64,000 nt of DNA from an uncultured Pseudomonadota bacterium (GCA_963834845.1 CAWICY010000004.1:2649530-2713529), one strand, 5' to 3'; positions 25,286 through 60,536 are shown, counted from the first letter of the stretch. The notes: generated by a model not told the origin, from the letters alone. Numbers and translations are program-made.

Positions 25286-25305
25286 CCAAAGCGCAGCAGC
25301 ATGGC

Positions 25306-25336
25306 GAGGCCGCCTTCGGGCGGCCTCGTTCGTTTT
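25306..25336 (+). terminator. Stem-loop GAGGCCGCC-TTCG-GGCGGCCTC followed by GTTCGTTTTA (intrinsic terminator or attenuator after the PQQ-ADH gene)
   Basis: A perfect 9-bp GC stem with a TTCG tetraloop at 25306-25327, then a T-rich tail. Lies 21 nt after the ADH stop. Confidence 0.6.
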
Positions 25337-25939
25337 ATGGAAGGAGGAATTCATTTGCGGCTTCGCACTACATGGTTCTTGGTGGGAATGTCGTTCGCGC
25401 TCGTGAGCGGGCGTGCGCAGTGCCAGGATATCGATGCCGGGGCGCGCAAGGCGGAGGTATGCATCCCCTGCCATGGCGTCAACGGCAACTCGACCAACCA
25501 CCAGTTTCCGATACTTGCCGGACAGACCGCGCGCTACATCTATCTGCAGCTCAAGGATTTCAAGGAGGGGCGCCGCAGGGACCCGTCGATGGATCCGATG
25601 GCGGCCAAGCTCTCGCGCGAGGACATGTTCGACCTGGCCGCGTTCTTTTCCGCGCAGAAGCGACTACCGACCCCATTCAATTCCGACCCCGCCAAAGCAG
25701 CCAAGGGCAAGGCCAAGGCGGATGAAACGCTTTGCACCATGTGTCACCTCGGCGGCTTCATGGGGCAAAACGAGATTCCGCGGGTTGCGGGGCAGCACTA
25801 CGAGTACATCGTCAAGCAGCTCGGGAATTTCAAGGCCCGTCGACGCACGAACGACGCAGGCAACATGACGAGCGTCGCGAACACTCTGTCCGACGACGAC
25901 ATCGAGAATCTTGCGAACTATTTGGCAGGATTGCAGTAG
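25337..25939 (+). CDS. Dihaem cytochrome c4-like protein (probable electron acceptor of the PQQ dehydrogenase)
   Basis: CIPCHG...FPILAGQ.ARYIYLQLKDF and CTMCH...IPRVAGQHYEYIVKQLGNF. Best start may be TTG 25355 (AAGGAGG RBS, giving signal RLRTTWFLVGMSFALVSGRAQC). The ORF-track start 25301 would include the terminator hairpin. Confidence 0.85.
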   Translation: MEGGIHLRLRTTWFLVGMSFALVSGRAQCQDIDAGARKAEVCIPCHGVNGNSTNHQFPILAGQTARYIYLQLKDFKEGRRRDPSMDPMAAKLSREDMFDLAAFFSAQKRLPTPFNSDPAKAAKGKAKADETLCTMCHLGGFMGQNEIPRVAGQHYEYIVKQLGNFKARRRTNDAGNMTSVANTLSDDDIENLANYLAGLQ

Positions 25940-28220: not shown

Positions 28221-28231
28221 GCGGCGGGGCG

Positions 28232-28249
28232 GCCGGACTGAAGTCCGGC
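28232..28249. terminator. Perfect hairpin GCCGGACT-GA-AGTCCGGC between the convergent TBDR and cytochrome b561 genes
   Basis: Read directly, 11 nt after the TBDR stop. There is no U-tract on either strand, so termination activity is uncertain. Confidence 0.4.
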
Positions 28250-28265
28250 TCGAAGGCATCGCGCC

Positions 28266-28622
28266 CTAAGGCAATCCGGGCATCCTTGAGCGCGCGCTTG
28301 GCCACATCCGCTGCAGAACCGCGTCGCGATCGACGAGTGCGTGCTTCAGCGCGGCATGCAGCCACTTCGCGGCACGTGCCTCCCACCGCGGCATGGTGCC
28401 AGGAAACGGAGGCGCCGGATGTAGGGCGCGCCACCAGAGTCTGATGAGTATGATGACTCCTGCGGTGACGCTGATCGACTTGTGCAAGTTGATGACGATA
28501 CTGCGCTCGGGCACGCCGCTTGGCACGCCACCGAGGTACCAGCCGAATGCAATCTGGAACAACACCAGGCCAGCGACGATCCAATGCAGGGCGATCGCCG
28601 TGCGGGTGTATCGATTTTCCAT
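28266..28622 (-). CDS. Cytochrome b561 family protein, apparently C-terminally truncated (possible gene remnant)
   Basis: MENRYTRTAIALHWIVAGLVLFQIAFGW...INLHKSISVTAGVIILIRLWWR....P.....P.WEARAAKWLHAAL matches the first ~2.5 helices of CybB/YceJ-type b561. The sequence then becomes non-hydrophobic and stops at 118 aa; family members are typically ~175-190 aa. Confidence 0.6.
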   Translation of the reverse strand: MENRYTRTAIALHWIVAGLVLFQIAFGWYLGGVPSGVPERSIVINLHKSISVTAGVIILIRLWWRALHPAPPFPGTMPRWEARAAKWLHAALKHALVDRDAVLQRMWPSARSRMPGLP

Positions 28623-28650
28623 GCCGCTTACGGCTTTCCGCGAGCGGCGC

Positions 28651-28971
28651 TTATTTCGGCGGCGTCACGGTCACCTTGATGCTCGAATACCACTCCGAGA
28701 CATTGTCGATGTCGGCATCGGTGAGCGGCTTCGCGATGATGCTCATCTGGTCATTCCGGCGGCTGCCGGAGCGAAAGGCCCTGAGCTGCGCCACGAGGTA
28801 TTCCTTCTGCTGGCCACTGAGGTTGGCGGCGCCGGGCAGGACCGCGACGCCGTCCGCGCCGTGGCAGTTCTGGCACAGGGTCTGCACCATCGGCGGCGCC
28901 TCGCCCCCAGCTCGTGCCTGGACCGGCGACAGGAAGGCGGCGAGTACGAACGCCGTGCAAATGATACGCAT
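28651..28971 (-). CDS. Monohaem class I cytochrome c
   Basis: Signal MRIICTAFVLAAFLSPVQA. CQNCHG....LPGAANLSGQQKEYLVAQLRAFRSG.R.ND.MS (c4-half/c553-like). Confidence 0.85.
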   Translation of the reverse strand: MRIICTAFVLAAFLSPVQARAGGEAPPMVQTLCQNCHGADGVAVLPGAANLSGQQKEYLVAQLRAFRSGSRRNDQMSIIAKPLTDADIDNVSEWYSSIKVTVTPPK

Positions 28972-28980
28972 TTGTCTTCG

Positions 28981-29017
28981 GGGAGAAAAAGATGGGCCGG
29001 GCGCCGGGCCCGGCCCA
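28981..29017 (-). terminator. Rho-independent terminator after the sorbosone-dehydrogenase-like gene
   Basis: On the minus strand: UGGGCCGGGC-ccggc-GCCCGGCCCA (10-bp stem, 28993-29017) followed by UCUUUUUCUCCCC. Confidence 0.6.
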
Positions 29018-29032
29018 GTCTAGTCTGCCCCG

Positions 29033-30325
29033 CTACTTGCCTTGGTACGAGATGCGATAGATCGCGCCGGCCTTGTCGTCGGCTACCAGGATCGAGCCGT
29101 CGACGTACTGCCTCACGTCGACCGGCCGGCCGAGGTAGACGCCTTCCTCGTTCATCCAGCCTTCGGCGAACGGCTCGGTCTTCATCGCATTGCCCTTGTC
29201 ATCCAGGTAGGTGACCATCACCCTTGCGCCCCTGGGCTTGACCGCGTTCCACGAGCCGTGCTGCGCGTCGAAGATCGCGTTGTGGTACTTGGCCGGGAAC
29301 ATCTTGCCCGTGTAGACCATCATTCCCAGGTCCGCGGCGTGCGCGATCATTTCCACCTGGGGCTTGACGTATATCGCGGCGAGTTCCTTGGGAATCTGCT
29401 TGTCCTTGTACTCGTCGGTCCTCGTGCTGCCGCCGCCGTAGTACGGGAAGCCGTACCAGCCGCCCAGATGGAGCTTGCCGTTCGGGGCGGGCACCTTGTT
29501 CAGCTCGCCCGGAGGAATTTCGTCTCCCATGCCGTCGACCTGGTTGTCGGTGAACCACAGGCTCTTGTCCTTGGAATTGAAATCGAGCCCGGACGAATTG
29601 CGCATCCCGGTCAGGACCACTTCGCGTCCCGTGCCGTCACGGTTGAAGCGCACGATGCCGCCGATGCCCCACTTGCGGTACAGATCGACCTTTTCCGGCG
29701 GGGTCACGTTGAACGGCTGGCCGAGGGTGATGTAGATCTTGTTATCGGGGCCGATTACGCAGGCGCGCGCCGTGTGGTTGTACGATTCCTCTTCCGGCGG
29801 AATCAGCTCGCCCTGCTTGACGATCGCGACCGCAACCGTGTCGGGGCTTTCCATGAAGTATTCCGCCGCCGGGAACATCATCACGCGGTTGCGCTCGGCG
29901 ATGAACAGGAACCCGTCGGGCGAATAGCAGGCGCCGGCGGGAATGTCGAACTTGACGCTCGGGCTGAACTCCTCGACCGTGTCGGCGACGTTGTCCATGT
30001 CGCGATCGGTCACCGACCAGACGGTGGACTTGCGCGTGCCGACCCAGACGGTCGCCTTGTTGCGGCTCACCGCCATCTGCCGGGCATCGGGCACGATGGC
30101 AAACAGCTCGATCTTGAAGCCGTCGGGCAGCTTGATGCGCTGTAGCACCTTCTTAAGGTTATCCGCGTACTGGCCACCTTGCGGCACGCTCTTCCCGGGA
30201 CGGGAATCGGTGCGCTTGAACGCGCCCAGCTTGTCCAGATTTGCCTCGTCGTCCTTCGCGAAACCGGTGCTCGCGGAGAACGCAAATGCCAAGCCTACGG
30301 CAAGATATAAAGCCTTCCTCTTCAT
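29033..30325 (-). CDS. PQQ-dependent sugar/sorbosone dehydrogenase family beta-propeller (exported)
   Basis: MKRKALYLAVGLAFAFSASTGFA signal. ...LPDGFKIELFA....ARQMAV..., NSSGLDFN.KDKSLWFTDNQVDGMGDEIPPGELN, ...GSILVADDKAGAIYRISY: the sorbosone/glucose dehydrogenase-like pattern. Confidence 0.8.
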   Translation of the reverse strand: MKRKALYLAVGLAFAFSASTGFAKDDEANLDKLGAFKRTDSRPGKSVPQGGQYADNLKKVLQRIKLPDGFKIELFAIVPDARQMAVSRNKATVWVGTRKSTVWSVTDRDMDNVADTVEEFSPSVKFDIPAGACYSPDGFLFIAERNRVMMFPAAEYFMESPDTVAVAIVKQGELIPPEEESYNHTARACVIGPDNKIYITLGQPFNVTPPEKVDLYRKWGIGGIVRFNRDGTGREVVLTGMRNSSGLDFNSKDKSLWFTDNQVDGMGDEIPPGELNKVPAPNGKLHLGGWYGFPYYGGGSTRTDEYKDKQIPKELAAIYVKPQVEMIAHAADLGMMVYTGKMFPAKYHNAIFDAQHGSWNAVKPRGARVMVTYLDDKGNAMKTEPFAEGWMNEEGVYLGRPVDVRQYVDGSILVADDKAGAIYRISYQGK

Positions 30326-30379
30326 GATTCCTCTCCCTTTCCTTATGTGATCCGCTGTCGCCCCTGGGGCAACTCCTGC

Positions 30380-30399
30380 CTGGATCGGTGTCGATCCAG
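30380..30399. promoter_or_regulatory. Perfect inverted repeat CTGGATCG-gtgt-CGATCCAG upstream of the sorbosone-dehydrogenase-like gene
   Basis: Read directly, 55 nt upstream of start 30325 in the divergent intergenic region shared with the acyl-CoA dehydrogenase gene. Could be an operator or a 5'-UTR hairpin. Confidence 0.3.
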
Positions 30400-30574
30400 C
30401 GCCGTTCGTTCGATTGGGGCGAGCCATGCTCCTCCCCTTGTTGCGTGCCCGTCAAGCGACGGATCGAACGTTGCCGGCCCACTGTCGTCCCACCCGCGTC
30501 CAACTCGCTTCCCACTGCAACCGTTTGCCGCAGCGCGTTAGACTGAGCGCGGTTTATCCCGGTATCCGACTACG

Positions 30575-31705
30575 ATGCGCTCGCCCTATTTCGACGACAC
30601 CCACCGGCTGCTGCGCGAGACGCTGCGGCGCTTCGTCGACAAGGAGGTGGTGCCGCAGGCCGCGGCCTGGGAGGAGCAGGGCTTCGTGCCGCGCCAAGTG
30701 CTGCGCGAAATGGGGCGCTACGGCTTCCTCGGCCTTCGCTACCCCGAGAAGTACAGCGGCGGCGCCATGAACGCGCTCGCGACCGCGCTGCTCGCCGAGG
30801 AGCTGGGGCGCTCGGGCTTCGGCGGCTTCGCCGCCACGGTGCTGGTGCACACCGACATGGCCTCGCCGCACCTGATGCACGCCGGCTCGGCGGCGCAGCT
30901 CGAGCGCTGGATGCCGGGCATCGTCGCCGGCGACCTGATCACCGCGGTGGCGGTGACCGAGCCCGACGCGGGCTCCGACGTGAAGGCGATCCGCACCAGC
31001 GCGCGCCGCGACGGGGACGCATGGTTGCTGCAGGGCAGCAAAATGTTCATCACCAACGGCGCACTCGCGGACCTGGTTTTCGTCGCCGCCAGGACCGATC
31101 CGGCCGCGGGATCGAGGGGCATTTCCATGTTCGCCGTCGAGAAGGGCGCGCGCGGGTTCTCGGTCGGGCGCAAGCTCGACAAGATGGGCTGGCGCTGCTC
31201 CGACACCGCCGAGCTGGTGTTCGAGGACGCTCCGGCCGAGCTGCTCGGCGAAGAAGGCCGCGGCTTCTACGCCATCATGCGCAATTTCCAGAACGAGCGC
31301 ATCGCGCTCGCCGCGATGGCGATGGGCGAGAGCCAGCGCGCGCTCGAGCTGACCCTCGAGTACGTGAAGACGCGCAAGGCCTTCGGCGGCGCACTGTGGG
31401 ACAAGCAGGCGCTGCGCCAGCGCCTGGCGACGCTCGCCGCGCGCGTCGAGGCCGGCCGCGAGCTCGTCTATCGCGCCGCCTGGCTCGACGCTCAGGGCGC
31501 CGAGTGCGTGAAGGAAGTATCGATGGCCAAGGCCTACTGCGGCGAGCTGACGAACGAGGTGATGTACGACTGCCTGCAGTTCCACGGCGGCTTCGGCTAC
31601 ATCCGCGAGTCCGCCATCGAGCGCATGTACCGCGACGCGCGCGTGCAGTCGATCGGCGGCGGCGCGACCGAAGTGATGCTCGAGGAAGTGGCGAAGCGCC
31701 TGTAG
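30575..31705 (+). CDS. Acyl-CoA dehydrogenase
   Basis: 376 aa. ...AVTEPDAGSDV..., GSKMFITNG..AD, ...QFHGGFGY..E..IERMYRDARV..I.GG..EVM. Confidence 0.92.
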   Translation: MRSPYFDDTHRLLRETLRRFVDKEVVPQAAAWEEQGFVPRQVLREMGRYGFLGLRYPEKYSGGAMNALATALLAEELGRSGFGGFAATVLVHTDMASPHLMHAGSAAQLERWMPGIVAGDLITAVAVTEPDAGSDVKAIRTSARRDGDAWLLQGSKMFITNGALADLVFVAARTDPAAGSRGISMFAVEKGARGFSVGRKLDKMGWRCSDTAELVFEDAPAELLGEEGRGFYAIMRNFQNERIALAAMAMGESQRALELTLEYVKTRKAFGGALWDKQALRQRLATLAARVEAGRELVYRAAWLDAQGAECVKEVSMAKAYCGELTNEVMYDCLQFHGGFGYIRESAIERMYRDARVQSIGGGATEVMLEEVAKRL

Positions 31706-48351: not shown

Positions 48352-49392
48352 ATGAAGCCGAAGATCGTCCTGCTCGTCGCGGTGGTCGCGCTGCTCGCGG
48401 CGGGCGGCGCATGGTGGTGGCGCCAGCAGCGCGCGCAGCCGCCGAGCGACGCGCTGGTGCTCCACGGCAACGTCGATATCCGCCAGGTCGAGCTCGCCTT
48501 CAACGCCTCGGGGCGCATCGAGCAGATGCTGGCCCACGAGGGCGATCGCGTGACGCCGGGACAGCTGCTCGCGGTGCTCGACATGCGCCGGCTCGAGCGC
48601 GCCGAGCAGCTGGCCGAGGCGCAGGTCGCCGCGCAGCGCCAGGTGGTGGCGCGCTTCCGGGCGGGATCGCGGCCCGAGGAGATCAGCAAGGCGAAGGCAG
48701 ACGTCGAGGCCGCGCGCGTCGACGCGAGGAACGCCGCGCACACCTATGAGCGCCTCAAGGCGCTTGCCGCGCAGCGCTTCATCGCCGAGCAGCAGGCCGA
48801 TGATGCGCGCGCCGCGGCCGAGGCCGCCAGCGCCCGGCTCAAGTCGGTGGAGGAGGCGCTGCGCCTGGTGGTGCTCGGCCCGCGCCAGGAGGACACGGCG
48901 GCCGCCGAGGCGACGCTGGCGGCCAACGAGGCGGCGCTCGCCATCGCGCGGCGCGACCTCGCCGAGGCGTCGCTCTACGCGCCGGCCGCGGGCGTGATCG
49001 AGAACCGCGTGCTCGAGCCTGGCGACATGGCCTCGCCGCAGAAGACGGTATTCACGCTGGCGCTCGGCGAGCCGCTGTGGGTGCGCGCCTACGTGCCCGG
49101 CCCCGATCTCGGCAAGATCCGCGTCGGCAGCCGCGCGGCGGTGCGCACCGACAGCTATCCCGGCAAGCGCTATCGCGCATGGGTCGGCTTCATATCGCCG
49201 ACCGCGGAGTTCACGCCGAAATCGGTCGAGACGCAGGAGGTGCGCACCCAGCTCGTCTACCAGGTGAGGGTGTTCGTGTGCGCGCCGCAGGGCGAACTGA
49301 GGCTCGGCATGCCCGCGACCGTCGACATCCCGCTCGGCGAGCCGGCGCCTGCCGCCGGCCGCGGCCCGGATCCCTGCAAAAACGGCGCATGA
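48352..49392 (+). CDS. HlyD-family membrane-fusion protein (YbhG-like)
   Basis: N-terminal anchor IVLLVAVVALLAAGGAWWW, long coiled-coil region, ...YAPAAGVI..R..EPG......Q.VF.L......WVRAYV.E..L, ...FTPK.V.T.E.R..LVY.V. Confidence 0.88.
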   Translation: MKPKIVLLVAVVALLAAGGAWWWRQQRAQPPSDALVLHGNVDIRQVELAFNASGRIEQMLAHEGDRVTPGQLLAVLDMRRLERAEQLAEAQVAAQRQVVARFRAGSRPEEISKAKADVEAARVDARNAAHTYERLKALAAQRFIAEQQADDARAAAEAASARLKSVEEALRLVVLGPRQEDTAAAEATLAANEAALAIARRDLAEASLYAPAAGVIENRVLEPGDMASPQKTVFTLALGEPLWVRAYVPGPDLGKIRVGSRAAVRTDSYPGKRYRAWVGFISPTAEFTPKSVETQEVRTQLVYQVRVFVCAPQGELRLGMPATVDIPLGEPAPAAGRGPDPCKNGA

Positions 49393-51118
49393 GCGCGCCG
49401 GAGGTCGTCCTCGAGCTCGAGGGAGTGGCCAAGCGCTTTCGCGCCGGCAAGCGCGAAGTGGCTGCGCTGCGCGGCGTGAGCCTGCGCATGCGCGCGGGGC
49501 TGGTGATGGGGCTGGTCGGGCCCGACGGCGCCGGCAAGACGACGCTCATGCGCCTGGTCGCGGGGCTGCTGGCGCCCGATGCCGGGCGCATCACGGTGCT
49601 CGGACTCGACGCCACCAGCCGGTCGCTCGACGTGCAGGCGGCGCTCGGCTACATGCCGCAGCGCTTCGGACTGTACGAGGACCTGAGCGTGCAGGAAAAC
49701 CTCGACCTGTACGCGGACCTGCAGGGCGTGCCGAGGGCGGCGCGCGCCGCGCGCTACGCCGAGCTGATGCAGATGACGGGCCTCGGCCCGTTCAGCGGCC
49801 GCCTCGCCGGGCGCCTCTCTGGCGGCATGAAGCAGAAGCTCGGCCTCGCCTGCACGCTGGTGCGCGCGCCGCCGCTGCTGCTGCTGGACGAGCCCACAGT
49901 CGGCGTCGACCCGGTGTCGCGCCGCGAGCTGTGGGCGATCGTCTACCGGCTGGTGAAGGGCGAGGGCACGAGCGTGCTGCTGTCGCACGGCGTACCTGGA
50001 CGAGGCCGAGCGCTGCGACGAGGTGGTGCTGCTGCACGAGGGAGAGGTGCTGGTGCAGGGACCGCCCGCGGAGCTCGCCGAGCGCGTGCGCGGGCACAGC
50101 TTCACGCTGCGCGCGCGCGGCGCCGACCGACGGCGGTTGCAGGAAGCGCTCGCACGCCGGCCGGGGGTGATCGACGCGCTGATCCAAGGCGAGGAGGTGC
50201 GCTTCGTCACCGAGAGCGCGGCGCCGCCGGGCGACATTGCCGGGCTGCGCGCCGAGCCCGTAGCGCCGCGCTTCGAGGACGCTTTCGTGTCCTTGCTGCA
50301 CGAGCGGCGCGGGGCCCAGGGCCGCGCGGCGCCCGCGGCCGCCGCCGAAGACGCGGATCCGCCGGCGGACGAAGTGGTGATCGACGTGCGCGGCGCGCAG
50401 CGCAAGTTCGGCGATTTCTACGCCGTCCGCGACGTGAGCTTCGAGGTGCGCCGCGGCGAGATCTTCGGCCTGCTGGGCGCCAACGGCGCGGGCAAGTCGA
50501 CCACCTTCCGCATGCTGTGCGGGCTGCTGCCGGCGAGCGCGGGGCACGCTGCGCGTGGCCGGCGTCGACCTGCGCCGCGCGGCCGCGGCGGCGCGCGCGC
50601 GCATCGGCTACATGTCGCAGAAGTTCTCCCTGTACGGCAACCTGAGCGTGCGCCAGAACCTCGAGTTCTTCGCCGGCGCCTACGGACTCGACGGGCACGC
50701 GGCGTGCCGAGCGCGAAGCCTGGGCGCTCGACGAATTCGAGCTCGGACGAGGAGCGCCGACGCCGCGAGCGCCGAGCTGCCGCTCGGCTACAAGCAGCGC
50801 CTGGCGATGGCCTGCGCCCTGATGCACGAGCCGGAGATCCTGTTCCTCGACGAGCCCACCTCCGGGGTCGATCCGCTGGCGCGGCGCGAGTTCTGGCGGC
50901 GCATCAACGCGCTCGCGCGGCGCGGCGTGACGGTGATGGTGACCACGCATTTCATGGAGGAAGCCGAGTACTGCGACCGGCTGGCGATCATGGCTGCGGG
51001 CGAGATCCTCGCGACCGGCGCGCCCGACGAGATCAAGGCGCGCGCCCGGGCGCCGGGCGCGCCCGAGCCGACCATGGAAGACGCCTTCATCCAACTGATC
51101 CAGGGCGCGGCCGCATGA
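49389..51118 (+). pseudogene. Tandem-ATPase ABC protein (YbhF-like, two NBDs) carrying about 4 frameshifts
   Basis: NBD1 is in frame 0 (GLVGPDGAGKTT, LSGGMKQKL, LLLLDEPTVGVD) up to SVLLS. TAYLDEAERCDEVVLLHEG continues in frame 1 (extra c ~49986). NBD2 (GLLGANGAGKSTT) shifts again at GGGG 50541-50544, at GGG 50693-50695 and at ~50748. It ends LPLGYKQRLAMA...LFLDEPTSGVDP...*. Confidence 0.8.
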
Positions 51119-52280
51119 GCGCGCGCGGCGGCGCCGCCGCAGGGATCGCCGTGCGCGGCGGCGCGACGATGCGGCTGCGCGGGCTGGTGCGCAAGGAGTT
51201 CCTGCAGATCGTGCGCGATCCGAGCAGCATCGCGATCGCCTTCATCATGCCGGTCGTGCTGCTGCTGCTGTTCGGCTACGGCGTGTCGCTCGACGTCGAG
51301 CACGTGCCGGTGGCGGTGGTGGTCGAGCAGCCCGAGCGCCGACACCGCGGACTTCGTCGGCTCGCTGCGGGGCTCGCGCTATTTTGCGCCCCTCGAGGTG
51401 CCGGGCATGCAGGCGGCCGAGGAGGCGCTGCTGCGCAGGCCGGGTCGACGCGATCGTCCGCCTGCGCGCCGACTTCGCCGCGCGCGAGCGGCGGCCGCAG
51501 GGCGCGCCGGTGCAGCTGATCGTCAACGGCATCGACGCCAACACCGCGCGGCTGGTCGAGGGCTACATGGACGGCGTCACCACCGTGTGGCTGGCGCGGC
51601 GCGCCGCCGAGCGCGGCCGGCGCTTCGAGACGCCGGTGGCGCTCGAGCAGCGCGTGTGGTTCAACTCCGAGGTGCGCAGCCGCAACTTCCTGGTGCCCGG
51701 CCTGGTCGTGGTGATCATGACCCTGATCGGCGCGCTGCTCACCGCGATGGTGATGGCGCGCGAGTGGGAGCGCGGCACCATGGAGGCGCTGCATGGTCAC
51801 GCCGGTCGCGGTCGGCGAGATCCTGCTCGGCAAGCTGATTCCCTACTTCATTCTCGGCATGGGCGGAATGCTGCTGTCGGTGGCGATGGCCATCTGGCTG
51901 TTCGACGTGCCGCTCGCGCGGCTCGTTCTGGCTGCTGCTGCTCACCTCGGCGCTGTTCCTGCTGGTCGCGCTGGGCATGGGTCTGCTGATCTCGAGCGTC
52001 GCCCGGGTGCCAGTTCGTCGCCGGGCAGGTCGCCATCATCACCACCTTCCTGCCGGCGTTCCTGCTCTCCGGCTTCATCTTCGACATCGGCAGCATGCCT
52101 GCGGTGGTGCAGGTGATCACGCACCTGTTCGCGGCGCGCTATTTCGTCGCCATCGTCACCACCCTGTTCCTCGCCGGCGACGTCTGGTCGGTGATCGTGC
52201 CGAACACGCTGGCGCTGGCGCTCATGGCGGCGATATTTCTCGGCCTGACGCGGCTCAAGACCCGCAAGCGGCTGGAGTGA
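51115..52280 (+). pseudogene. ABC-2 type permease (YbhS-like) carrying about 5 frameshifts
   Basis: The protein can only be assembled from four frames: MSARGG...VAVVVEQ | SADTADFVGSLRGSRYFAPLEV | VDAIVRLRADF...REWERGTMEAL | MVTPVAVGEILLGK...FDVPL | SFWLLLLTSALFLLVALGMGLLISS | QFVAGQVAIITTFLPAFLLSGFIFDIGSMPAVVQVITHLFAARYF...*. Shifts fall near 51331-51333, 51437, 51792, 51913-51922 and 52004-52010. Confidence 0.75.
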
Positions 52281-52289
52281 TCCGGACAG

Positions 52290-53399
52290 ATGTGGAGCCG
52301 CATCCTCGCGCTGGTAATCAAGGAGTTCCTCGCGCTGCTCAAGGACAGGCAGGAGCCGGGTGGTGCTGATCGTGCCGCCGCTCGTCCAGCTGCTGGTGTT
52401 CGGCTATGCCGCGACCTTCGACCTGAAGCAGGTGCCTTACGCGCTGTACAACGAGGATGCGGACCCGGCGGGCGGCGGCTGGTGGCGATGCTGCGCGGAT
52501 CAAGCAGCTTCAGCGAGGCGGCGACGGTGTCATCGATCGACGAGATGGCGCCGCTGGTCGACGCGAGGAAGGTGCTGCTGGTGATCCACGTCGATGCGCG
52601 CTTCACCCGCGACCTGCTGGCGGGCAAGCCGGCCAGGCTGCAGCTGATCGTCGACGGCCGCAACTCGAACACCGCGCTCATCGCGGTCGGCTACGTGCGC
52701 CAGATCGTCGGCCGCTTCAACCGCGAGTGGTCGGCCGAGCAGGGGCTGCCCGCGCCGCCCGCCGCGCTCGAGACGCGCGCCTGGTTCAATCCGAACCTGG
52801 AGAGCCGCTGGTTCTTCCTGCCGGGCATCGTCGGCATCCTGACGCTGCTCATCACCATGCTGGTCACCGCGCTGTCGGTGGCGCGCGAGCGCGAGCAGGG
52901 GACCTTCGACCAGCTGCTGGTGACGCCGATGCGCCCGGTGGAAATACTCATCGGCAAGGCCCTGCCGGGGTTCATCATCGGCATCCTCGAGGCGACGGCG
53001 ATCATGCTGATCGCCGTGCTGTGGTTCCGCATTCCGCTGCTCGGCAGCGTGGCGACGCTGTATGCCGGGCTCGCGCTGTTCCTGTTGTCGGCGGTCGGCA
53101 TCGGGCTGATGATCTCTTCGCTCGCGGTCACCCAGCAGCAGGGGCTGCTGGGCGCGTTCCTGTTCATGGTCCCCGCGGTCATCCTGTCGGGCTTCGCCAC
53201 GCCGATCGCCAACATGCCGACGGCGATCCGGCTCATCACCCTGGTCGATCCGCTGCGCTATTTCCTGGTGATCCTGCGCAAGCTGTTCCTCGAAGGCGCG
53301 CCGGCTTCATCGCTGGTGCACCAGCTCTGGCCGATGGCGCTGATCGGCGCGGCGAGCATGGCGCTCGCCGGCTGGCTGTTCCGCCACCGCATGTACTGA
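52290..53399 (+). pseudogene. ABC-2 type permease (YbhR-like); ORF stays open but contains a +1/-1 frameshift pair that scrambles ~40 codons
   Basis: Residues KDRQ then EPGGADRAAARPAAGVRLCRDL... are non-membrane-like. The alternative frame (ORF 52360-52584) reads the expected RVVLIVPPLVQLLVFGYAATFDLKQVPYALYNEDADPA. Extra g ~52353; missing nucleotide ~52468-52475. Confidence 0.7.
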
Positions 53400-53408
53400 G
53401 CGCGCGCC

Positions 53409-54593
53409 ATGCGGGACTACACCGAAGGCGCGCGCGAGCTGGTGGAGCGCGCCGAGCGCGAGTCGCTCGCGCTGCTGCGCGACAACCTCGGGCCGGGCGG
53501 CATTCTCGCCGCGGGGCGCGGCACGCAGGCGAGCCGGCGCGGCTACGACGTGGTGTTCGCGCGCGACGCGGCGGTGTGCGCGCTGGCGATGACGCTCGCC
53601 GGCGAGGCGCGGCTCGAGCGCGGCGCGGCCGCGGGCCTTGCCACGCTTGCCGAGCGCCAGGCGGCCAACGGGCAGATCCCGAAATTCGTCGACCGGGCTT
53701 CGGGCAGCGGCGATTTCTGGTACGTCGGCTGCATCGACGCCACGCTGTGGTGGCTGGTCGCGCTGCGCTGGCTCGAGCGGCACGGGGTGCAGCGCCGCCT
53801 GCTCGGCAGGCTCGCGCCGCACGCGGCGCGCGCGCTCGCCTGGCTCGCGGCGCAGGAGCATCCGAGGATCGGCCTGCTGCAGCAGAACGAGGCGAGCGAC
53901 TGGGCCGACATCATGCCGCGCTCGGGCTTCGTGCTCTACAGCAACGCGCTGTGGTACCGCGTCAAGCGCCTGTACGGGCTCGCCGGCGCGGAGCTCACGC
54001 AACGGCATTTCAACCAGCTGTTCATGCCGAGCGACCGCGACGTCCCGGAGTACCGGCGCTTGCGTCTGCTGGCGCACTACGCGCGCCGCAAGCGCGGCTT
54101 TCCGGATCTCTATCTGAGCTTCGTCAACCTCGCCGCGGCGGGCGACGAGGGCGACGTGTTCGGCAACCTGCTCGCCGCGCTGTTCGGCCTCGCCGACGGC
54201 GCGCGCGTCGCGGCGATGCTGCGGGCGATCGGGCGCGCCCAGGCGGGCGCGCCGCACCCGGTGCGCGTCACCTGTCGGCCGATCCCGCCGGGCGATCCGC
54301 TGTGGCGGCCGTACATGAGCCGCCACCAGCAGAACTTCGAGCACCAGTACCACAACGGCGGCATCTGGCCGATGGTCGGCGGCTTCTGGGTGAGCGCGCT
54401 CGCGGCGGCCGGCAAGCGCCAGGCGGCGCGCGACGAGCTGCTGCGCCTGGCGCGCGCCAACGCGGTCAACGGCTGGGAGTTCAACGAATGGTTCCATGGC
54501 CTCACCGGGCGGCCGAGCGGCATGCCGCGCCAGTCGTGGAACGCGGCGACCTTCCTGCTTGCGCGCCGCGCGCTCGAGAAGAAGCTCTTCTAG
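53409..54593 (+). CDS. GH100-like (alkaline/neutral invertase / amylo-alpha-1,6-glucosidase-like) six-hairpin glycosidase family protein
   Basis: 394 aa, intact. ...GYDVVFARDAAV..., QIPKFV......DFWY.GCIDATLWW, ...QNEASDWADIMPRSG.VLYSNALWY, ...YHNGGIWPMVGGFW..., ...EW.....G...G...QSWNAA. Confidence 0.7.
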   Translation: MRDYTEGARELVERAERESLALLRDNLGPGGILAAGRGTQASRRGYDVVFARDAAVCALAMTLAGEARLERGAAAGLATLAERQAANGQIPKFVDRASGSGDFWYVGCIDATLWWLVALRWLERHGVQRRLLGRLAPHAARALAWLAAQEHPRIGLLQQNEASDWADIMPRSGFVLYSNALWYRVKRLYGLAGAELTQRHFNQLFMPSDRDVPEYRRLRLLAHYARRKRGFPDLYLSFVNLAAAGDEGDVFGNLLAALFGLADGARVAAMLRAIGRAQAGAPHPVRVTCRPIPPGDPLWRPYMSRHQQNFEHQYHNGGIWPMVGGFWVSALAAAGKRQAARDELLRLARANAVNGWEFNEWFHGLTGRPSGMPRQSWNAATFLLARRALEKKLF

Positions 54594-55307
54594 AGCCCGA
54601 GGTAGGCCTGGCGCACGCGGTCGTCGTGCAGCAGCGCCTCTCCCGCGCCCGACATCACCACGGCGCCGTTCTCGAGCACGAAGGCGTGCTGCGAGATCTT
54701 GAGCGACACCGCTACGTTCTGCTCGACGAGCAGAATCGTCAGGCCTTTGTCGTGCAGCATGCGGATGGTGTGGAACACCTCCTGCACCACGGTCGGCGCC
54801 AGGCCGAGCGACGGCTCGTCGAACATGATCAGCTCGGGCTGGCCCATCAGGCAGCGGCCGATGGCGAGCATCTGCTGCTCGCCGCCGGACATGGTTCCCG
54901 CGAGCTGCCTGCGGCGCTCGGCGAGGCGCGGGAACAGCGCGTAGACCTCCTGCATCTGCTTCAGCCGCACGCCCACGCGCGCGCGGCAGCAGGCCGCCCA
55001 TCTCCAGGTTCTCCTCGACCGTGAGCGAAGGGAACACCTGGCGCCCTTCGGCCACCTGGCCGATGCCGAGGTTGCAGATCTGGTGGGATTCCAGCCCCGT
55101 GATGTCTCGCTGTTCGAACAGCACTTTTCCGGAGCGCGCCCGCTCGATTCCCGCGATCGCGCGGATCAGCGAGGACTTGCCGGCGCCGTTGGCGCCGACG
55201 ATGGCGACGATCTCGCCCTTGGGAACCTCGAGCGACACGCCGGCTAGCGCCTGCGCGTCGCCGTAATAGAGGTCCAGGTCGCGCACGGAAAGCAGCGGCG
55301 CGCTCAT
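54590..55307 (-). pseudogene. livF: Branched-chain amino acid ABC transporter ATP-binding protein LivF, one frameshift
   Basis: The N-terminal half (MSAPLLSVRDLDLYYGDAQAL.GVSLEV.KGEIVAIVGANGAGKSS...TVEENLEMGG) and the C-terminal half (VRLKQMQEVYALFPRLAERR.Q.AGTMSGGEQQMLAIGR...MFDEPSLGLAP) are in different frames. The junction is in the CGCGCGCG run at ~54975-54985. Confidence 0.8.
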
Positions 55308-56027
55308 ACGCTCGTGTCCTCGCCCAGGTAGCACTCGAGCACCGCGGGGTCGTGCACCACCTCGCCTGGCGCGCCGCGCGCGATGATCTCGCCGTGGTGC
55401 AGCACCACCACCTGCTCCGCGAGCGCCATCACGGCGCGCATGACGTGCTCGATGAGCAGGATCGTCAGGCCGCCGCGGTTCAGCTCGCGGAACACCTCGA
55501 CCATCTGGTCGCACTCGGTGGGCCGCAGGCCCGCCATCGCCTCGTCGAGCAGCAGCAGGCGAGGGCCGCGTGGCGAGCGCGCGCGCCACCTCGAGGCGCT
55601 TCCTGTCGGGCAGCGTGAGCGAGGAAGCGGGCAGGTCCTTCTTCGCGGCGAGATCGAGCCGGGCGAGGATGGCGAGCGCCCGCTCGCGCGCGCGTGGCAC
55701 GCTCGGCTCGCGTCGCAGGGCGCCGACGATCACGTTGTCGAGCACCGAGAGGCCGGCGAAGGGCTTGACGATCTGGAAGGTGCGCCCGATCCCGGCGCCA
55801 CAGATCTGGTCGGGTCGCAGGCCGTCGATCCTGCTGCCGGCAAACACGATTTCCCCTTCGTCCGGCGCGTACGCGCCGGCGGCCATGTTGAAGATGGTGG
55901 TCTTGCCGGCGCCGTTCGGTCCGATCAGTGCGACCAGGCCGCCCTCGGGCACTTCGAGCGAAGCGTTCGACACCGCGCGCAGGCCGCGGAAAGACTTGCC
56001 GAGCGAGCGGATCTCGAGCAGCGCCAC
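55304..56027 (-). pseudogene. livG: Branched-chain amino acid ABC transporter ATP-binding protein LivG, one frameshift
   Basis: GTG start. MALLEIRSLGKSFRGLRAV...LIGPNGAGKTT... up to EVARALATRP, then RLLLLDEAMAGLRPTE...LLIEHVM continues in another frame (ORF 55304-55537). The apparent extra nucleotide is at ~55562. Confidence 0.8.
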
Positions 56028-56028
56028 G

Positions 56029-57012
56029 TCAGGTCTTCCGCCTGATGCCGAGCTTGCGCGCGAGCGCCGGCCAGATGCCGTTCGGCAGGAACATCACCAC
56101 CAGCAGCAGCACCACGCCGTAGAACACCTGCTTCACGCCGGGGAACTCCAGGCCGACCGCGGCGAGCAGCTCGGTGATGCTGTCGGCGAGGATGGTGAGC
56201 ACCGCGGCGCCCAGGATCGGCCCGAACAGCGTGCCTACGCCGCCGATGATCGGCCCGAGGATGATCTCGATCGAGCGGCTGATGTGGAAGATCGTCTCCG
56301 GGAACAGGTTGTTGTAGTAGAAGGCGAAGAACACGCCGGAGAACGCGGTCATCGCGGCGCTGATCACCACCGCGAGCATCTTCCAGCGGAAGGTGTTGAT
56401 GCCGAGCGACTGCGCCGCCTCCTCGTTCTCGCGGATCGCCTGCCAGTAGTAGCCGGCGCGGCTGCGCAAGAGCCATGCGCACAGCGCGAACGCGCCCGCC
56501 GCGAGCGCCAGCATCACGTAGTAGAACATCACGGGGGGGCCGCGCAGGTTGAGCAGATCGGCGGCCTGGCGCTGACCGACCTTGAGGAACAGCCCGCCCG
56601 GCCCGCCGAGCCAGCCGATGTGGTCGAAGCCGATGCGGGTGAACTCGGCGAAGGCGATCGTCAGCAGGGCGAAGTACACGCCCGAGATGCCGAAGCGGAA
56701 GGCGAGAAAGCCGATCACCGCGCCCGCGGCGACGCACACGGCGATCGCCAGCCAGATTCCGGCCCAGGGTCCGATGCCGAAGTGGAAGAACAGCCCCGCC
56801 GCCGCGTAGGCGCCGAGTCCGACGTACAGCGAATGCCCGAGCGAGAGCTGCCCGGCGAAGCCCATCATCACGTTCCATGCCTGGCCGGTGAAGGCGAAGA
56901 ACAGGATCAGCGTCGCCACCGACAGCAGGTAGCTGCCCGCGAACAGCGGCAGCGCCAGCAGCGCGCCGGCCAGCAATGCGAGCAGCACCTCGGCGCGGCG
57001 GTTGCCGCTCAT
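56029..57012 (-). CDS. livM: Branched-chain amino acid ABC transporter permease LivM (apparently intact)
   Basis: About 327 aa. ...TGQAWNVMMGFAGQLSLGHSLYVGLGAYAAA... with hydrophobic segments throughout. The ATG overlaps the livH stop (ATGA). Confidence 0.82.
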   Translation of the reverse strand: MSGNRRAEVLLALLAGALLALPLFAGSYLLSVATLILFFAFTGQAWNVMMGFAGQLSLGHSLYVGLGAYAAAGLFFHFGIGPWAGIWLAIAVCVAAGAVIGFLAFRFGISGVYFALLTIAFAEFTRIGFDHIGWLGGPGGLFLKVGQRQAADLLNLRGPPVMFYYVMLALAAGAFALCAWLLRSRAGYYWQAIRENEEAAQSLGINTFRWKMLAVVISAAMTAFSGVFFAFYYNNLFPETIFHISRSIEIILGPIIGGVGTLFGPILGAAVLTILADSITELLAAVGLEFPGVKQVFYGVVLLLVVMFLPNGIWPALARKLGIRRKT

Positions 57013-57886
57013 GGCTTTCTCCCCAGCAGCCCCTGCGGGCGGAACAGCAGCACCAGGATCAGCAGCGCGAAGCTGAACATGCTCTTCGCCGAGGGCTGGA
57101 TGAACAGGCCCGCCAGCGCCTCCGACACGCCGATCAGCACGCCGCCGAGCAGCGCGCCCGCCCATCGAGCCGAGGCCGCCGACGATCACGATGACGAACG
57201 CGAGCAGCGTGTAGGACGGCCCGAGCGTGGGGGTGACGTCGACCAGCAGCGATCATCATGCAGCCGGCCACCGCGACGCAGGCCGCGCCCAGGCCGAAGG
57301 TGAGCGCGTAGTAGGCGCTTGACGTTCAGGCCCGACCACCTTGGCGCCGAGGTGGTTGTCGGCGCAGGCGCGGATCGCCTTGCCGGTGCGCGCGTAGCGG
57401 AAGAACGCGAACAGCGCGCTGCGGTCGCGAGCGATCGCTACGCCGGCGGCATAGACGCGCGCCTTGTCGAACAGGATCGGGCCCAGGGCCCAGGATTCGA
57501 GCTGGTAGTCGACCTGCACGTTGCGCGCGTCGGGGCCGAACGCCATCAGCAGCGCGTTCACCAGGATGATCGCGACCGCCACCAGCAGCATGAACTGCGA
57601 GTGCTCGGGCCGCGTGATGAACGGGTTGATCAGCCCGCGCTGCAGCAGCGTAGCCGAGGACGAAGAAGGCCGCAGCGACCGGGATCACGGCGAGGAAAGG
57701 GTCCAGCCGGAATGCCGTGAACAGGCCCACCGCGGCGTACATGGCGATGGTCATCATCTCGCCGTGCGCGAAGTTGACCACGCGCACCACGCCGAAGATC
57801 ACCGACAGGCCGAGCGCCATCAGCCCGTACACCAGGCCGGTGAGCACGCCCGCGAGGGCGACGTTGACGACGAGGTCTACCGCCAT
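57009..57886 (-). pseudogene. livH: Branched-chain amino acid ABC transporter permease LivH, about 5 frameshifts
   Basis: MAVDLVVNVALAGVLTGLVYGLMALGLSVIFGVVRVVNFAHGEMM... is readable. The protein then has to be followed through frame changes near 57651, 57330, 57315, 57250 and 57158 to reach ...FALLILVLLFRPQGLLGRKP*. Confidence 0.75.
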
Positions 57887-57944
57887 GGGACGAGAAAAAG
57901 GCCGGCCGACGGGGTCATCGGCCGGCCTTCGAGGGGCGGCGCTC

Positions 57945-59192
57945 CTAGGCCTTGTAGCTCGGCCAGGGGAATACCGGCTTCGCCTCGGCGGCTTCCGCGG
58001 GCAGCACCACCTTGGGCGTGCCGCCCAGGTTCTGCACGCAGGCCGAGAGGTTGCCCTCGACCTGGCCCTTGGCATTGAACTTGATCGGGCCGCCGAGCGC
58101 CACGCGGTCGGTGATGTTGGTCTGCCGGATGGCGTCGGCGAGCGCGCGCGCGTCGCTGCTGCGCGCGCGCTTGTAGCGCATCGGCAGCGATCAGGATCGC
58201 CTCGAAGGTGTAGGCAACGTTGATGGCGTGGAACACGAACTTCTCGCTCGGGTTCTGCTTCCTGAACGCCGCGTCGACGATCTTCGTCATGTTGGTCTTG
58301 GGGTTGTACCAGGGCGCGTTCGAAATGCAGTACTCGGCGTACTTGCCGAGCACCTTGGCGAACTGCTCCTCGTACATGCCGGGCGAGCCCGGGCTGATGA
58401 CGCCCATCGGATTCCAGCGCTGCTTCACCATCTCGCGGCGCAGGATGATCGAGTCGTTGCAGGCGGCACACCAGCAGCAGGAAATCGGCGTTCGCGGCCT
58501 TGGCCTTCGACACTTCGACCGTGAGGTCCTTGGCCGCCGGGTCGTAGGGCGACGCTCTCGATGATCTTGAACGGCAGGTTGGTCAGCCGCGGCAGGAAGG
58601 CGTTGATGCCCTTGGACATCGCCTGGCCGAAGGTGTCGTTGACGTGCATGAACACCGCGCTGCGCGGCGCGACGCTGGTCGCCTGGAACAGCGTCGCCGA
58701 TGATCGACGAGGCCGTTCCTCACCAGGTCGGGCGCGGTCGGGAAGTTGCGGAACACGAACTTGTAGCCCTGCTCGGTGATCTGCGGCGCGGCAGCGATGT
58801 TGACCACGTAGGGCACGCCGCGCTGCTCGGCGACCTGCGCGATGGCGGTCGGCTGCCCGGAGTCGAAGGCGCCGACCAGCACGTGCGCGCCTTCCTGGAT
58901 GAGGCGCTCTGCGCGCGTGCGCGCGGTGTCGACGTTGCGTTTCGGTGTCGGCGTTCATCAGCTCGATGTCTACGCCGAGCAGATTCTTGATCACGCCGGG
59001 CGCGAGGTCGGCGCCTTTCTGGCACGACTGGCCGATGAAGCCGAGGTAGCCCGAGCGCGGCAGCAGCACGCCGACCTTGAGCTTGGCGCCTTGCGCGCGC
59101 GCGATGCCGAATGGCGACAGCGCGGCGAGCACGCTGGTCGCGGCCGCCGCGGTATTGAACTTGCGGCGGTTCATGCCGGTGGAACGTTCCAT
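57945..59192 (-). pseudogene. livK: Periplasmic branched-chain amino acid-binding protein (LivK/LivJ family), about 5 frameshifts
   Basis: AGGAGGAGG RBS and a signal peptide. Family-like segments (KLKVGVLLPRSGYLGFIG, HVLVGAFDSGQPTAIAQVAEQRGVPYVV, SAVFMHVNDTFGQAM, NADFLLLVCRL, WNPMGVISPGSPGMYE, GPIKFNAKGQVEGN) are spread over three frames. Shifts fall near 58940, 58700, 58555, 58465 and 58178. Confidence 0.75.
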
Positions 59193-59250
59193 ATTGCCTC
59201 CTCCTGAGAGTGCCGGTTCATTCTACGCTGCCCGCTTGCTGCGGGGTAGA

Positions 59251-59269
59251 TTGTTATATACGATGACAA
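59251..59269. promoter_or_regulatory. AT-rich imperfect palindrome TTGTTATATACGATGACAA upstream of the MarR gene (candidate MarR operator, copy 1)
   Basis: Read directly, 27 nt upstream of ATG 59296. 15 of 19 positions are identical to the site at 63587-63605. Confidence 0.5.
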
Positions 59270-59295
59270 TTTCGCGGTCAACGCCGCGCCGCAAT

Positions 59296-59778
59296 ATGAG
59301 CAAGCCTCCCTCACCGCACCGGCCGCGTGCCCTGGCGCCGATCGAGCGCGTGCCGGGGGTCGACTACGGGGTGCTCGACGAGCTGCTCGGCTACTCGCTG
59401 CGCCGCGCGCAGGTGGCCATGTTCCTCGCCTTTCACCGCGCCACGCGCGGGCTCGAGATCACGCCGCCGCGCTTCAGCGCGCTGGTGATCATCGGCGCCA
59501 ACCCCGGCTTGAGCCAGTCCACTCTGGGCGCGGTGCTCGGCATCGCGCGCTCGGGGGCGATGCTGCTCGCCGACTGGATGGTCGAGCGCCGCCTGGTCGA
59601 GCGCCGCCGCCGCCCGGACGACGGCCGCGCCTGGGGCCTGCACCTCACGCGCCGCGGCGCCGAGCTGGTGGAGAAGATGAGGCGCGCGGTCGCGGCCGAA
59701 GACCGCCGCCAGGCGGCGCGCCTCAGCGCCGCCGAGCGCCGCGAGCTGCTGCGCCTGCTGGACAAGCTCGCAGGTTAG
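59296..59778 (+). CDS. MarR family transcriptional regulator
   Basis: 160 aa. ...LGYSLRRAQVAMFLAF......LEITPPRFSALVIIGANPGLSQSTLGAVLGIARSGAMLLADWMVERRLVERRR.PDDGRAWGLHLT.RG. Confidence 0.85.
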   Translation: MSKPPSPHRPRALAPIERVPGVDYGVLDELLGYSLRRAQVAMFLAFHRATRGLEITPPRFSALVIIGANPGLSQSTLGAVLGIARSGAMLLADWMVERRLVERRRRPDDGRAWGLHLTRRGAELVEKMRRAVAAEDRRQAARLSAAERRELLRLLDKLAG

Positions 59779-60536
59779 CGCGGCGCCATGCGCAGCGCAC
59801 CGTCCAGGCGGATCACCTCGCCGTTAAGCTGCACGTTGTCGATGATGTGCAGCGCGAGGCGGGCGAACTCTTCCGGCGTGCCGAGGCGCTTGGGGAAGGG
59901 AATCGACGCGGCGAGCGACTTCTGCACCTCGTCGGGCAGCGTGCCGAGCAGCGGCGTGAGGAAGATGCCGGGCGCGATGGTCATCACGCGCACGCCGAAC
60001 TGCGACAGATCCCGCGCCAGCGGCAGCGTCATCGAGACGATGCCGCCCTTGGAAGCCGAATACGCGACCTGCCCGATCTGGCCGTCGTAGGCCGCGACCG
60101 AGGACGTGTTGATCATCACGCCGCGCTCGCCGTCGGCGAGTGGGGGCATTGTAATCATGTCGGCGGCGGCGAGACGCATCATGTTGAAGCTGCCCACCAG
60201 GTTCACGTTGACTATCCTGGTGAAATGCTCGAGCGGCATCGCGCCATCCTTGCCCACCAGGCGCCGGGCCCCGCCGATGCCGGCGCAATTGACCAGAATC
60301 CGCGCCGGCCCGTGCGCGGCGCGCGCCTTGGCGACCGCGGCCTCGGCGCTCGGGCCGCTCGAGACGTCGCATTCGGCGAACACGCCGCCGATCTCCGCGG
60401 CGAGCTTGCTGCCGAGCTCGGCATTCACGTCGAGCAGCGCCACCCTGGCGCCCGCCGCGGCGAGCTTGCGCGCGGTGCCCGCGCCGAGTCCCGAGGCGCC
60501 GCCGGTGACCAGCGCAGCTTGTCCCTTGATTTCCAT
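59775..60536 (-). CDS. 3-hydroxyacyl-CoA dehydrogenase type II-like SDR
   Basis: MEIKGQAALVTGGASGLGAGTA..L, NCAGIG, YSASKGG (YxxxK), ...MTIAPGIF.TPLL...P...Q..L....PFP.RLG.P.EFA. Confidence 0.88.
   Translation of the reverse strand: MEIKGQAALVTGGASGLGAGTARKLAAAGARVALLDVNAELGSKLAAEIGGVFAECDVSSGPSAEAAVAKARAAHGPARILVNCAGIGGARRLVGKDGAMPLEHFTRIVNVNLVGSFNMMRLAAADMITMPPLADGERGVMINTSSVAAYDGQIGQVAYSASKGGIVSMTLPLARDLSQFGVRVMTIAPGIFLTPLLGTLPDEVQKSLAASIPFPKRLGTPEEFARLALHIIDNVQLNGEVIRLDGALRMAPR

Follow-up and report, generated by a model that had tools for sequence, protein, structure and literature searches.

Clustered extra bases in two transporter operons of an uncultured Burkholderiales bacterium: probable consensus errors at strain-variable sites

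Does a dense cluster of frameshifts in two transporter operons record the recent loss of these functions, or does it reflect a defect of the assembled sequence? The question is raised by a stretch of 64,000 nucleotides (hereafter, the window) from an uncultured Burkholderiales bacterium, in which 24 frame-breaking events are found between positions 49986 and 58939, across seven genes coding for a YbhF-like ABC ATPase, two ABC-2 permeases, LivF, LivG, LivH and LivK. With the livH bases that cancel out in frame and a single intergenic base included, the tally rises to 28 inserted bases versus a single deleted one, 25 of the former being solitary and the remainder one adjacent pair and one further base beside that pair. 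The frame switches emerge at matching sites from a Viterbi segmentation based on GC3 periodicity, the HSPs of orthologues in tblastn are split at the same sites, and the frameshifts are confirmed both by frameshift-aware protein-DNA alignment against orthologues and by MAFFT nucleotide alignment against close relatives. By all these approaches, the positions listed in the original prediction agree within a few bases, and the count of about 23 is nearly matched; livK, in fact, carries six events, one beyond those listed, and four further bases had been missed. The remark that most events are extra bases holds as well, and turned out to be the key clue.

The distribution of the events is extremely uneven. 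In particular, 24 of 25 lie inside 16% of the GC3-scorable sequence (P about 3e-18, by our own binomial estimate; about 9.5 kb of lower-GC3 sequence fell outside scoring). Locally the density is 2.7 events per kb, versus about 0.02 per kb elsewhere in the window. Within the zone they are gathered in patches of 0.6-2.5 kb, with 3-7 events per kb inside the patches. In the rest of the window all same-strand frame switches coincide with a stop codon, bar one, just as a single event at 12.85 kb had been anticipated for the remaining ~55 kb. Specifically, an extra base at approximately 12847 (cgAT) interrupts an enoyl-CoA hydratase gene (12214-12952, plus strand), whose NCBIfam match ends at profile position about 210 of 258, that is, at the frame switch. 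As this event lies in an unrelated gene and one extra base of the zone is intergenic, the apparent confinement to two transporter operons is incidental.

The first group of affected genes lies on the plus strand, and is assigned at family level to a predicted YbhGFSR-like HlyD/ABC-2 exporter, since a single operon codes for an adaptor of the HlyD family, an ATPase carrying two ABC domains and a pair of ABC-2 membrane proteins. The gene for the HlyD/YbhG-like periplasmic adaptor (48352-49392; NCBIfam PRK03598 'secretion protein HlyD', E 1e-101) is intact, its orthologues align in one HSP, and its exact product of 346 aa has been recorded from a contig of 3.81 Mb. The following gene codes for the ABC ATPase with two nucleotide-binding domains (YbhF/RbbA-like; 49389-51118) and contains single extra bases at 49986, 50546 and 50689 and two at 50756-57, placed by frameshift-aware alignment to the orthologues of the related contigs L081 and L054, both intact at 574 aa. 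These insertions are specific to the window in comparison with L081, L090, L091 and L092, and the corrected protein matches ABC ATPase families. Permease 1 (51115-52280) has extra bases at 51329, 51433, 51791, 51917 and 52010, together with a window-specific in-frame insertion of 30 bases at 51123-51152; once corrected, it shares 89% identity with the L081 orthologue and 93% with P0283. Permease 2 (52290-53399) carries the only deletion, at 52463, which compensates an extra base at 52346, so that the reading frame stays open with 38 codons out of frame; against the L001 orthologue, correction of this pair raises the identity across residues 4-372 from 77% in the uncorrected HSP to 85%. The GH100-like glycoside hydrolase gene that follows (53409-54593, plus strand) is 94% identical to its L081 counterpart, on which Pfam PF12899 was found, and shows no frameshift against it; the exact product of the window is on record.

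The second group, on the minus strand, would encode a LivKHMGF-type amino-acid uptake system: the intact L081 orthologues comprise, in one operon, a Peripla_BP_6 binding protein, two BPD_transp_2 permeases and two ABC_tran ATPases (Pfam), and the liv genes of the window align with them over their full length at 93-96% identity after frame correction. The ATPase genes livF (54590-55307) and livG (55304-56027) have one extra base each, at 54957 (absent in L081, L082 and L083) and at 55568 (absent in L081, L082, L083, L085, L001, L054 and L056), respectively. The permease gene livM (56029-57012) is intact, being 96% identical to L081 without frameshift and 99.1-99.5% identical, gap-free, to L088 and L089. 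The other permease gene, livH (57009-57886), contains extra bases at 57156, 57250, 57314, 57334 and 57649, as well as at 57423, 57424 and 57432; these last three cancel out in frame and, with a window-specific extra base at 57937 in the livK-livH spacer, seen in nucleotide alignments to relatives, are the four that had escaped the original prediction. The gene for the periplasmic binding protein, livK (57945-59192), shows extra bases at 58177, 58456, 58551, 58692, 58703 and 58939, and its corrected product is 94% identical to the intact 413-aa orthologue of L081. Beside livK, and divergent from it, lies an intact gene for a MarR-family regulator (59296-59778, plus strand); window positions 59055-60093 are matched at 100% identity by the Logan contig L086 (run ERR11523651). 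The earlier reading of HlyD, the GH100-like gene and livM as intact is thus confirmed.

Comparison with orthologous regions, the check proposed along with the original prediction, indicates that the insertions are private to the window and that the genes of the relatives are intact. None of nine related contigs contains the extra bases. L081, which is syntenic, 91% identical to the window and has all ten genes intact, lacks every one of the 28, and the extra bases are likewise absent from L082, L083 and L085 and from L090, L091 and L092. The closest comparison is offered by L087, in which 1914 bases show 21 mismatches and none of the eight livH insertions is present; over these 1.9 kb the 21 substitutions are accompanied by 7 indel events, every one of them private to the window. 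In the compared contigs, conversely, the only private indel is a 4-base deletion in L082. The exact LivM, GH100, MarR and HlyD proteins are on record together on one MAG contig of 3,809,913 bases (NCBI, ENA). A search of the records for the exact corrected sequences of LivF, LivG, LivH and LivK found none; therefore, no independent intact copy from the same strain is available, except for the part of livH in L087. Near-identical yet distinct strains (98.9-99.5%) occur in other public runs.

Only 2 of 22 inserted bases are identical to a flanking base, versus 11.4 expected under random insertion (0 of 20000 simulations were as low); the other 20 differ from both neighbours. Moreover, at 19 of 23 sites the insertion corresponds to the alternative allele found at the adjacent orthologous position in relatives, versus an expectation of 4.9 (SD 2.0); in this test, which used five relatives, the maximum of 5000 simulations was 12, none reached 19, and four sites have no matching allele. 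Such doublets include ctGc, as opposed to ctc or ctg in relatives, and cagc, as opposed to cag or cgc. By inspection of the alignments, the events mostly adjoin third codon positions, and at most 2-3 of 28 fit best between positions 1 and 2, about 9 being expected. Assigned to the third codon position, some doublets (tac+G, caa+C) would yield non-synonymous or nonsense alleles; these call for a variant at the first position. Taken as a whole, the pattern is that of two alleles set side by side, in that the insertion mostly reproduces the other allele of its neighbouring site, the two bases differ in most cases, and the site usually adjoins a third codon position. The classical Nanopore signature, an error in a homopolymer, was not found; since the sites lie outside runs of identical bases, the error type is atypical for that technology.

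A technology control was obtained from 378 liv genes in 80 related loci. Frameshifted liv genes number 6 of 55 in Nanopore-only Microflora Danica MAG loci versus 0 of 323 in the other 69 loci, which mostly carry short-read-assembler contig names (Fisher P = 7e-6). The six frameshifts are all +1 and look like those of the window. The Microflora Danica MAGs (MFD-LR catalogue) were assembled with Flye and one round of Medaka, without short-read polishing (PMC12313526).

These observations argue that the frameshifts are probably consensus errors of a long-read metagenome assembly, namely extra bases at strain-variable sites, rather than mutations. The window comes from the single-contig MAG of 3.81 Mb, which was most likely assembled with long reads as the only input, as Flye plus Medaka would do with Nanopore data. 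Within a few patches of 0.6-2.5 kb, two or more co-occurring strains would have contributed the reads, or the draft backbone, on which the consensus was drawn, and at some sites differing between strains the polisher would have kept both alleles side by side; keeping both would add a net base and, therefore, shift the frame. We infer the source platform, the second strain in the sample and the pipeline step that retained both alleles. In the organism itself, the affected exporter and Liv genes most likely remain intact and working. Accordingly, of the two explanations originally left open, the artefact gains support, as the insertions are private, allele-matched, unaccompanied by extra substitutions and recurrent in Nanopore-only MAG loci. 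The argument that intact genes in between speak against bad sequence fails, because the errors are patchy and tied to sites varying among relatives, instead of being uniform noise.

An alternative of modest probability is that the events are residual random long-read errors, due to locally low coverage or poor polishing, with segments of raw-read draft left uncorrected and no second strain involved. Raw-read indel rates are, by our own estimate, of the order of 3-7 per kb, the density observed in the patches; the patchiness on a scale of 0.6-2.5 kb, the restriction of the events to one assembly and the same error class in other Nanopore-only MAG loci also fit. Random errors, however, should match a neighbouring base in about half of the cases, instead of 2 of 22, and the allele of relatives in about 5 of 23, instead of 19. 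In addition, sequence of raw quality should add substitutions and deletions, and neither is seen.

Genuine recent pseudogenisation, with the exporter and Liv uptake inactivated by frameshifts fixed in the population, is very improbable. Genome reduction often proceeds through the loss of transporters, seven genes of two functional units are affected with some neighbours intact, and no read data directly contradict this explanation. Nevertheless, bacterial mutation is deletion-biased, and natural single-base indels are expected as slippage within runs of identical bases; in place of such a spectrum, deletion-biased, of mixed sizes and located in runs, the window displays insertions in a ratio of 28:1, copying a neighbour in only 2 of 22 cases. 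The match with the alleles of relatives is not predicted by mutation, the 7 indel events that accompany 21 substitutions against L087 all belong to the window, and the same signature recurs in an intergenic position and in the unrelated gene at 12.85 kb. Signs of decay were also sought directly. Although a gene may carry five to six frameshifts, no stop codon interrupts the corrected frames, and neither multi-base indels nor an excess of lineage substitutions accompany them; after correction, every protein reaches full length and is 85-94% identical to its intact orthologues. The dN/dS values on reconstructed frames, a check proposed at the outset, are 0.11-0.18 for four liv genes versus 0.12-0.16 for intact neighbours, with no relaxed selection in the liv genes; they are higher in permease 1 (0.38) and in the ATPase (0.32). 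Window-lineage substitutions in the frameshift patches are no denser than in clean stretches, and in most comparisons those unique to the window are fewer than on the L081 branch; in the patch 57157-58939, for example, there are 11-20 per kb versus 23-32 per kb. No close relative shares the extra bases, and the pseudogene explanation is hence left unsupported.

A variant of this idea accepts the extra bases as real and ascribes them to a localised, insertion-only process that recently inactivated both transporters, a candidate being faulty heteroduplex repair after recombination with a divergent strain, in which both parental bases would be left in place; we consider it extremely improbable. 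Functional recoding (programmed +1 frameshifting or transcriptional slippage) and methylation-motif basecalling error, considered since many events share their direction and favoured by nothing specific, have a practically negligible chance, given that the event sites show neither slippery runs nor homopolymers, that no 4- or 5-mer is enriched around them after correction for 92-145 tests, that the window has no Rfam matches, and that orthologues encode the corresponding proteins in a single frame.

The biological weight of the cluster is small, and its usefulness is limited to that of a quality-control signature. For this bacterium, metabolic reconstructions should treat the exporter and Liv uptake as intact, not as lost functions. 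More generally, a contig that is mostly clean can still hide kilobase patches with 3-7 spurious insertions per kb, and such errors differ from the familiar homopolymer kind. Their mark is a lone extra base, unlike both neighbours, that adjoins a third codon position and equals the allele of relatives there. As it is detectable from the sequence and its relatives, this mark could serve to flag or repair regions in long-read MAG catalogues.

With respect to known systems, the closest likeness on the side of sequencing is with published errors of Nanopore-only assemblies (PMC9262707; PMC12313526), which are also gene-splitting single-base indels private to one assembly; the related contigs that lack those of the window mostly bear short-read-assembler names. 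Nanopore consensus errors are mostly homopolymer indels (PMC9262707), whereas those of the window are not, and stand apart for the 28:1 insertion bias, the allele match and the extreme density of 2.7 per kb. Strain-mixture or collapsed-haplotype errors share with the window the patchiness, the location at sites variable among relatives and the adjacency of both alleles; here, however, the second strain is our own deduction and the mechanism is read from the sequence pattern, and no published description of the exact allele-doublet signature or mechanism was found. Frameshift pseudogenes of reductive evolution resemble the window in having several frameshifts per gene in transporter operons, but the window lacks their deletion bias, homopolymer context, stop codons, relaxed selection and excess substitutions, and L087 lacks the livH events. 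As for the transport systems themselves, the exporter resembles the ABC-2 exporter of the E. coli YbhGFSR type in combining, within a single operon, an HlyD/YbhG-like adaptor, a two-domain ATPase and a pair of ABC-2 permeases; since the NCBIfam scores for YbhG (PRK03598) and RbbA remain under the curated cut-offs, its genes are family-level relatives and not equivalogs. The importer has the same gene content as the branched-chain amino-acid ABC importer LivKHMGF of E. coli, arranged here in the order livKHMGF with the divergent MarR gene alongside.

The frameshifts that crowd the two transporter operons at 49.9-59.0 kb are confirmed in the sequence, yet they do not represent a real biological feature. 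The original prediction had left two readings open, a poor assembly segment and a recent pseudogenisation. The former is favoured, and the best-supported explanation offered by sequence comparison is that the frameshifts would have arisen as an artefact of assembly or polishing. In particular, the events are private to the window and insertion-only (28 inserted bases versus 1 deleted base), they do not copy their neighbours, they match alleles found in relatives, they are not accompanied by extra substitutions and they are tied to one technology.

According to Pfam and NCBIfam, the affected region holds a YbhGFSR-like exporter operon on the plus strand (HlyD adaptor, two-ABC-domain ATPase and two ABC-2 permeases) and a livKHMGF amino-acid importer operon on the minus strand, with a divergent MarR gene alongside; neither Rfam nor a tRNA search gave a match anywhere in the window. 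A GH100-like hydrolase gene (53409-54593) lies between the two operons, flanked by permease 2 and livF. This gene is a presence/absence polymorphism among close relatives, being found in the window and in the related loci L081, L083, L054 and L056 and missing from L090 and L091, where permease 2 abuts livF, and apparently from L001.

Because the window has a G+C content of about 70% and a very strong third-codon-position GC, reading frames can be traced without annotation, and a three-periodicity Viterbi segmentation on GC3 was used for this task. The resulting frameshift scan covers the window except for roughly 9.5 kb in which GC3 is lower, where the genes include those of cytochromes c, a PQQ dehydrogenase and a TonB-dependent receptor. 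About two dozen frame switches that do not coincide with a stop codon were found at 49.9-59.0 kb; outside this zone, within scorable sequence, all same-strand switches coincide with gene stop codons, with the single exception at about 12.85 kb that had been predicted. The latter is one extra base at ~12847 (aag cgA T ctg), which shifts the last ~35 codons of an enoyl-CoA hydratase gene (12214-12952) into another frame and has the two-allele look (cga/cgt) of the hot zone; it is the sole such event found elsewhere. In two stretches, 1588-4822 and 23139-30590, the G+C content is 62-65% and third-position GC is weak, and the frame model calls both of them non-coding. They do encode proteins, namely multihaem and cbb3-type cytochromes c, a 4Fe-4S protein, a PQQ-dependent dehydrogenase, a TonB-dependent receptor and a GSDH-like protein, whose deviant codon usage suggests that these genes were acquired or are differently expressed.

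For comparison, LivM was used to collect 80 related loci in genomes of uncultured Burkholderiales, and exact-protein matches to collect closer contigs. Events were called with a frameshift-aware dynamic programme, aligning the relatives' proteins to the window, and with MAFFT DNA alignment; tblastn without composition correction was dominated by spurious high-GC off-frame matches, and default settings were used instead. The predicted list of frameshifts was recovered almost site for site, as were the intact reading frames of HlyD, GH100 and livM. Specifically, frame-breaking events number four in the ATPase, five in permease 1, five in livH and six in livK; livF and livG have a single event each, permease 2 has a +1 and a -1 event that compensate each other, and one more extra base (57937) occupies the livK-livH spacer. 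The clustering greatly exceeds chance, 24 of the 25 frame-breaking events falling within 16% of the scorable sequence (binomial estimate, P ~3e-18). In livH, an extra GG (57423-24) and an extra C (57432), 8 bases apart, leave the net frame unchanged and convert LAS-S into ARDRS. Because these bases are missing from all relatives, the near-identical Logan contig L087 included, in-frame codon insertions in this assembly can be artefacts too. Permease 1 also carries an in-frame insertion of 30 bases at its 5′ end (51123-51152; MSARGG-AAAGIAVRGG-ATMRL). This insertion is specific to the window, L081, L090, L091 and L092 all lacking it, and resembles a short tandem duplication, either real or an assembly artefact.

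None of the extra bases is shared. The JGI metagenome contig L081 (10.8 kb, 91% nucleotide identity to the window) shares the gene order of the window over the whole MarR-to-ATPase stretch, and none of its ten genes is interrupted; six other related contigs (L082, L083, L085, L090, L091 and L092) lack every extra base of the window in the MAFFT alignments. The most telling comparison is that with L087 (run SRR28002722), in which only 21 substitutions separate the contig from window 55899-57820 over 1914 bases; it carries none of the eight extra livH bases, and its LivH reading frame is unbroken. Two more contigs, L088 and L089, align to the livM of the window without gaps at 99.1-99.5% identity. 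Among the nine closest contigs (L081-L085, L087, L090-L092) the sole private indel is a 4-base deletion in the JGI contig L082 (2431-3149, corresponding to window ~55515), which breaks livG up into a 185-residue and a 66-residue product. The Logan contig L086 (ENA run ERR11523651, for which a literature search found no paper) is 100% identical to window 59055-60093 and stops 116 bases short of the first livK insertion; a partial product postulated for a neighbouring Logan contig, as a probe of the 58939 insertion, is not on record. The exact corrected LivF, LivG, LivH and LivK sequences are not in the protein collection searched, full-length relatives of corrected LivK being all at most 94% identical, and megablast against plasmids gave distant matches only (70-76% identity), unusable as a reference.

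The plainer artefact model invokes random residual read errors at low coverage. It accounts for the patchiness of the events and leaves unexplained the absence of substitution and deletion errors. Moreover, the insertion sites are not in homopolymer runs, and the inserted base equals a neighbour in 2 of 22 cases versus 11.4 under random insertion, with 0 of 20000 simulations as low; this deficit excludes replication slippage and argues against plain random read error as well. Random errors also leave unexplained the allele matching: 19 of 23 inserted bases are an allele of at least one of five relatives at the adjacent orthologous position, where the window base differs (4.9 expected, SD 2.0; maximum of 12 in 5000 simulations). 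For example, ctGc in the window faces ctc or ctg in relatives, gtCg faces gtg or gtc, cagc (twice) faces cag or cgc, and acgc faces agc or acg; alignment inspection places nearly all events next to a third codon position. The window thus has the two alleles of a variable site in adjacent positions. From this pattern we infer that, within a small number of 0.6-2.5 kb patches, the consensus would have been built over sequence of at least two co-occurring strains and that, at some strain-differing sites, both alleles would have been kept, generating a +1 frameshift. No paralogous copy above 80% identity, able to mislead polishing, was found within the window.

Genuine pseudogenisation is very unlikely. 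Given general mutation spectra, a gene with five or six real frameshifts is expected to have accumulated several-fold more substitutions, along with some deletions and longer indels, and none of these signs of decay is seen in the frameshifted genes of the window. The seven corrected proteins are full length and stop-free, with 85-94% identity to their L081 orthologues (92-96% for intact neighbours). Relaxed selection is not apparent in dN/dS against L081, with values of 0.11-0.18 for livK, livH, livG and livF versus 0.12-0.16 for MarR, livM and GH100; permease 1 and the ATPase lie somewhat above this range, at 0.38 and 0.32 respectively. An amino-acid relative-rate test gave mixed, outgroup-dependent ratios, and nucleotide three-taxon counts were relied on instead: window-private substitutions in the frameshift patches are not above those in clean stretches, and in most comparisons are below the L081-private ones. 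On these sequence measures, the exporter and Liv genes appear free of decay. A recoding or methylation-motif origin has no support, the latter being rejected because no 4- or 5-mer around the insertion sites survives multiple-testing correction.

The exact LivM, GH100, MarR and HlyD proteins of the window are on record (NCBI, ENA), all of them from one 3,809,913-base contig, which fits a long-read MAG; the source platform, the second strain and the faulty pipeline step are likewise what we infer. The biological interest of the frameshifts is low, and their modest value is that of a quality-control signature for long-read MAGs. A description of such allele doublets was not found in the literature consulted, where homopolymer indels are the errors named. 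As a technology control, the five liv genes of the 80 related loci, 378 genes altogether, were put through the same frameshift-aware alignment. Of the 55 genes on the 11 loci named "MFD...bin... contig_N", 6 are frameshifted, versus 0 of 323 from the other 69, mostly with short-read-assembler contig names (Fisher P = 7e-6). The former loci belong to the Microflora Danica (MFD) long-read catalogue, for which Nanopore data were assembled with Flye and given a single Medaka round, without short-read polishing (PMC12313526). The six events (L023, 9021; L027, 4837 and 12200; L036, 11792; L047, 8273; L077, 1100) are all single extra bases resembling those of the window (gtc G agc, gaa G ggc, gca G atg), which suggests a catalogue-wide error class.
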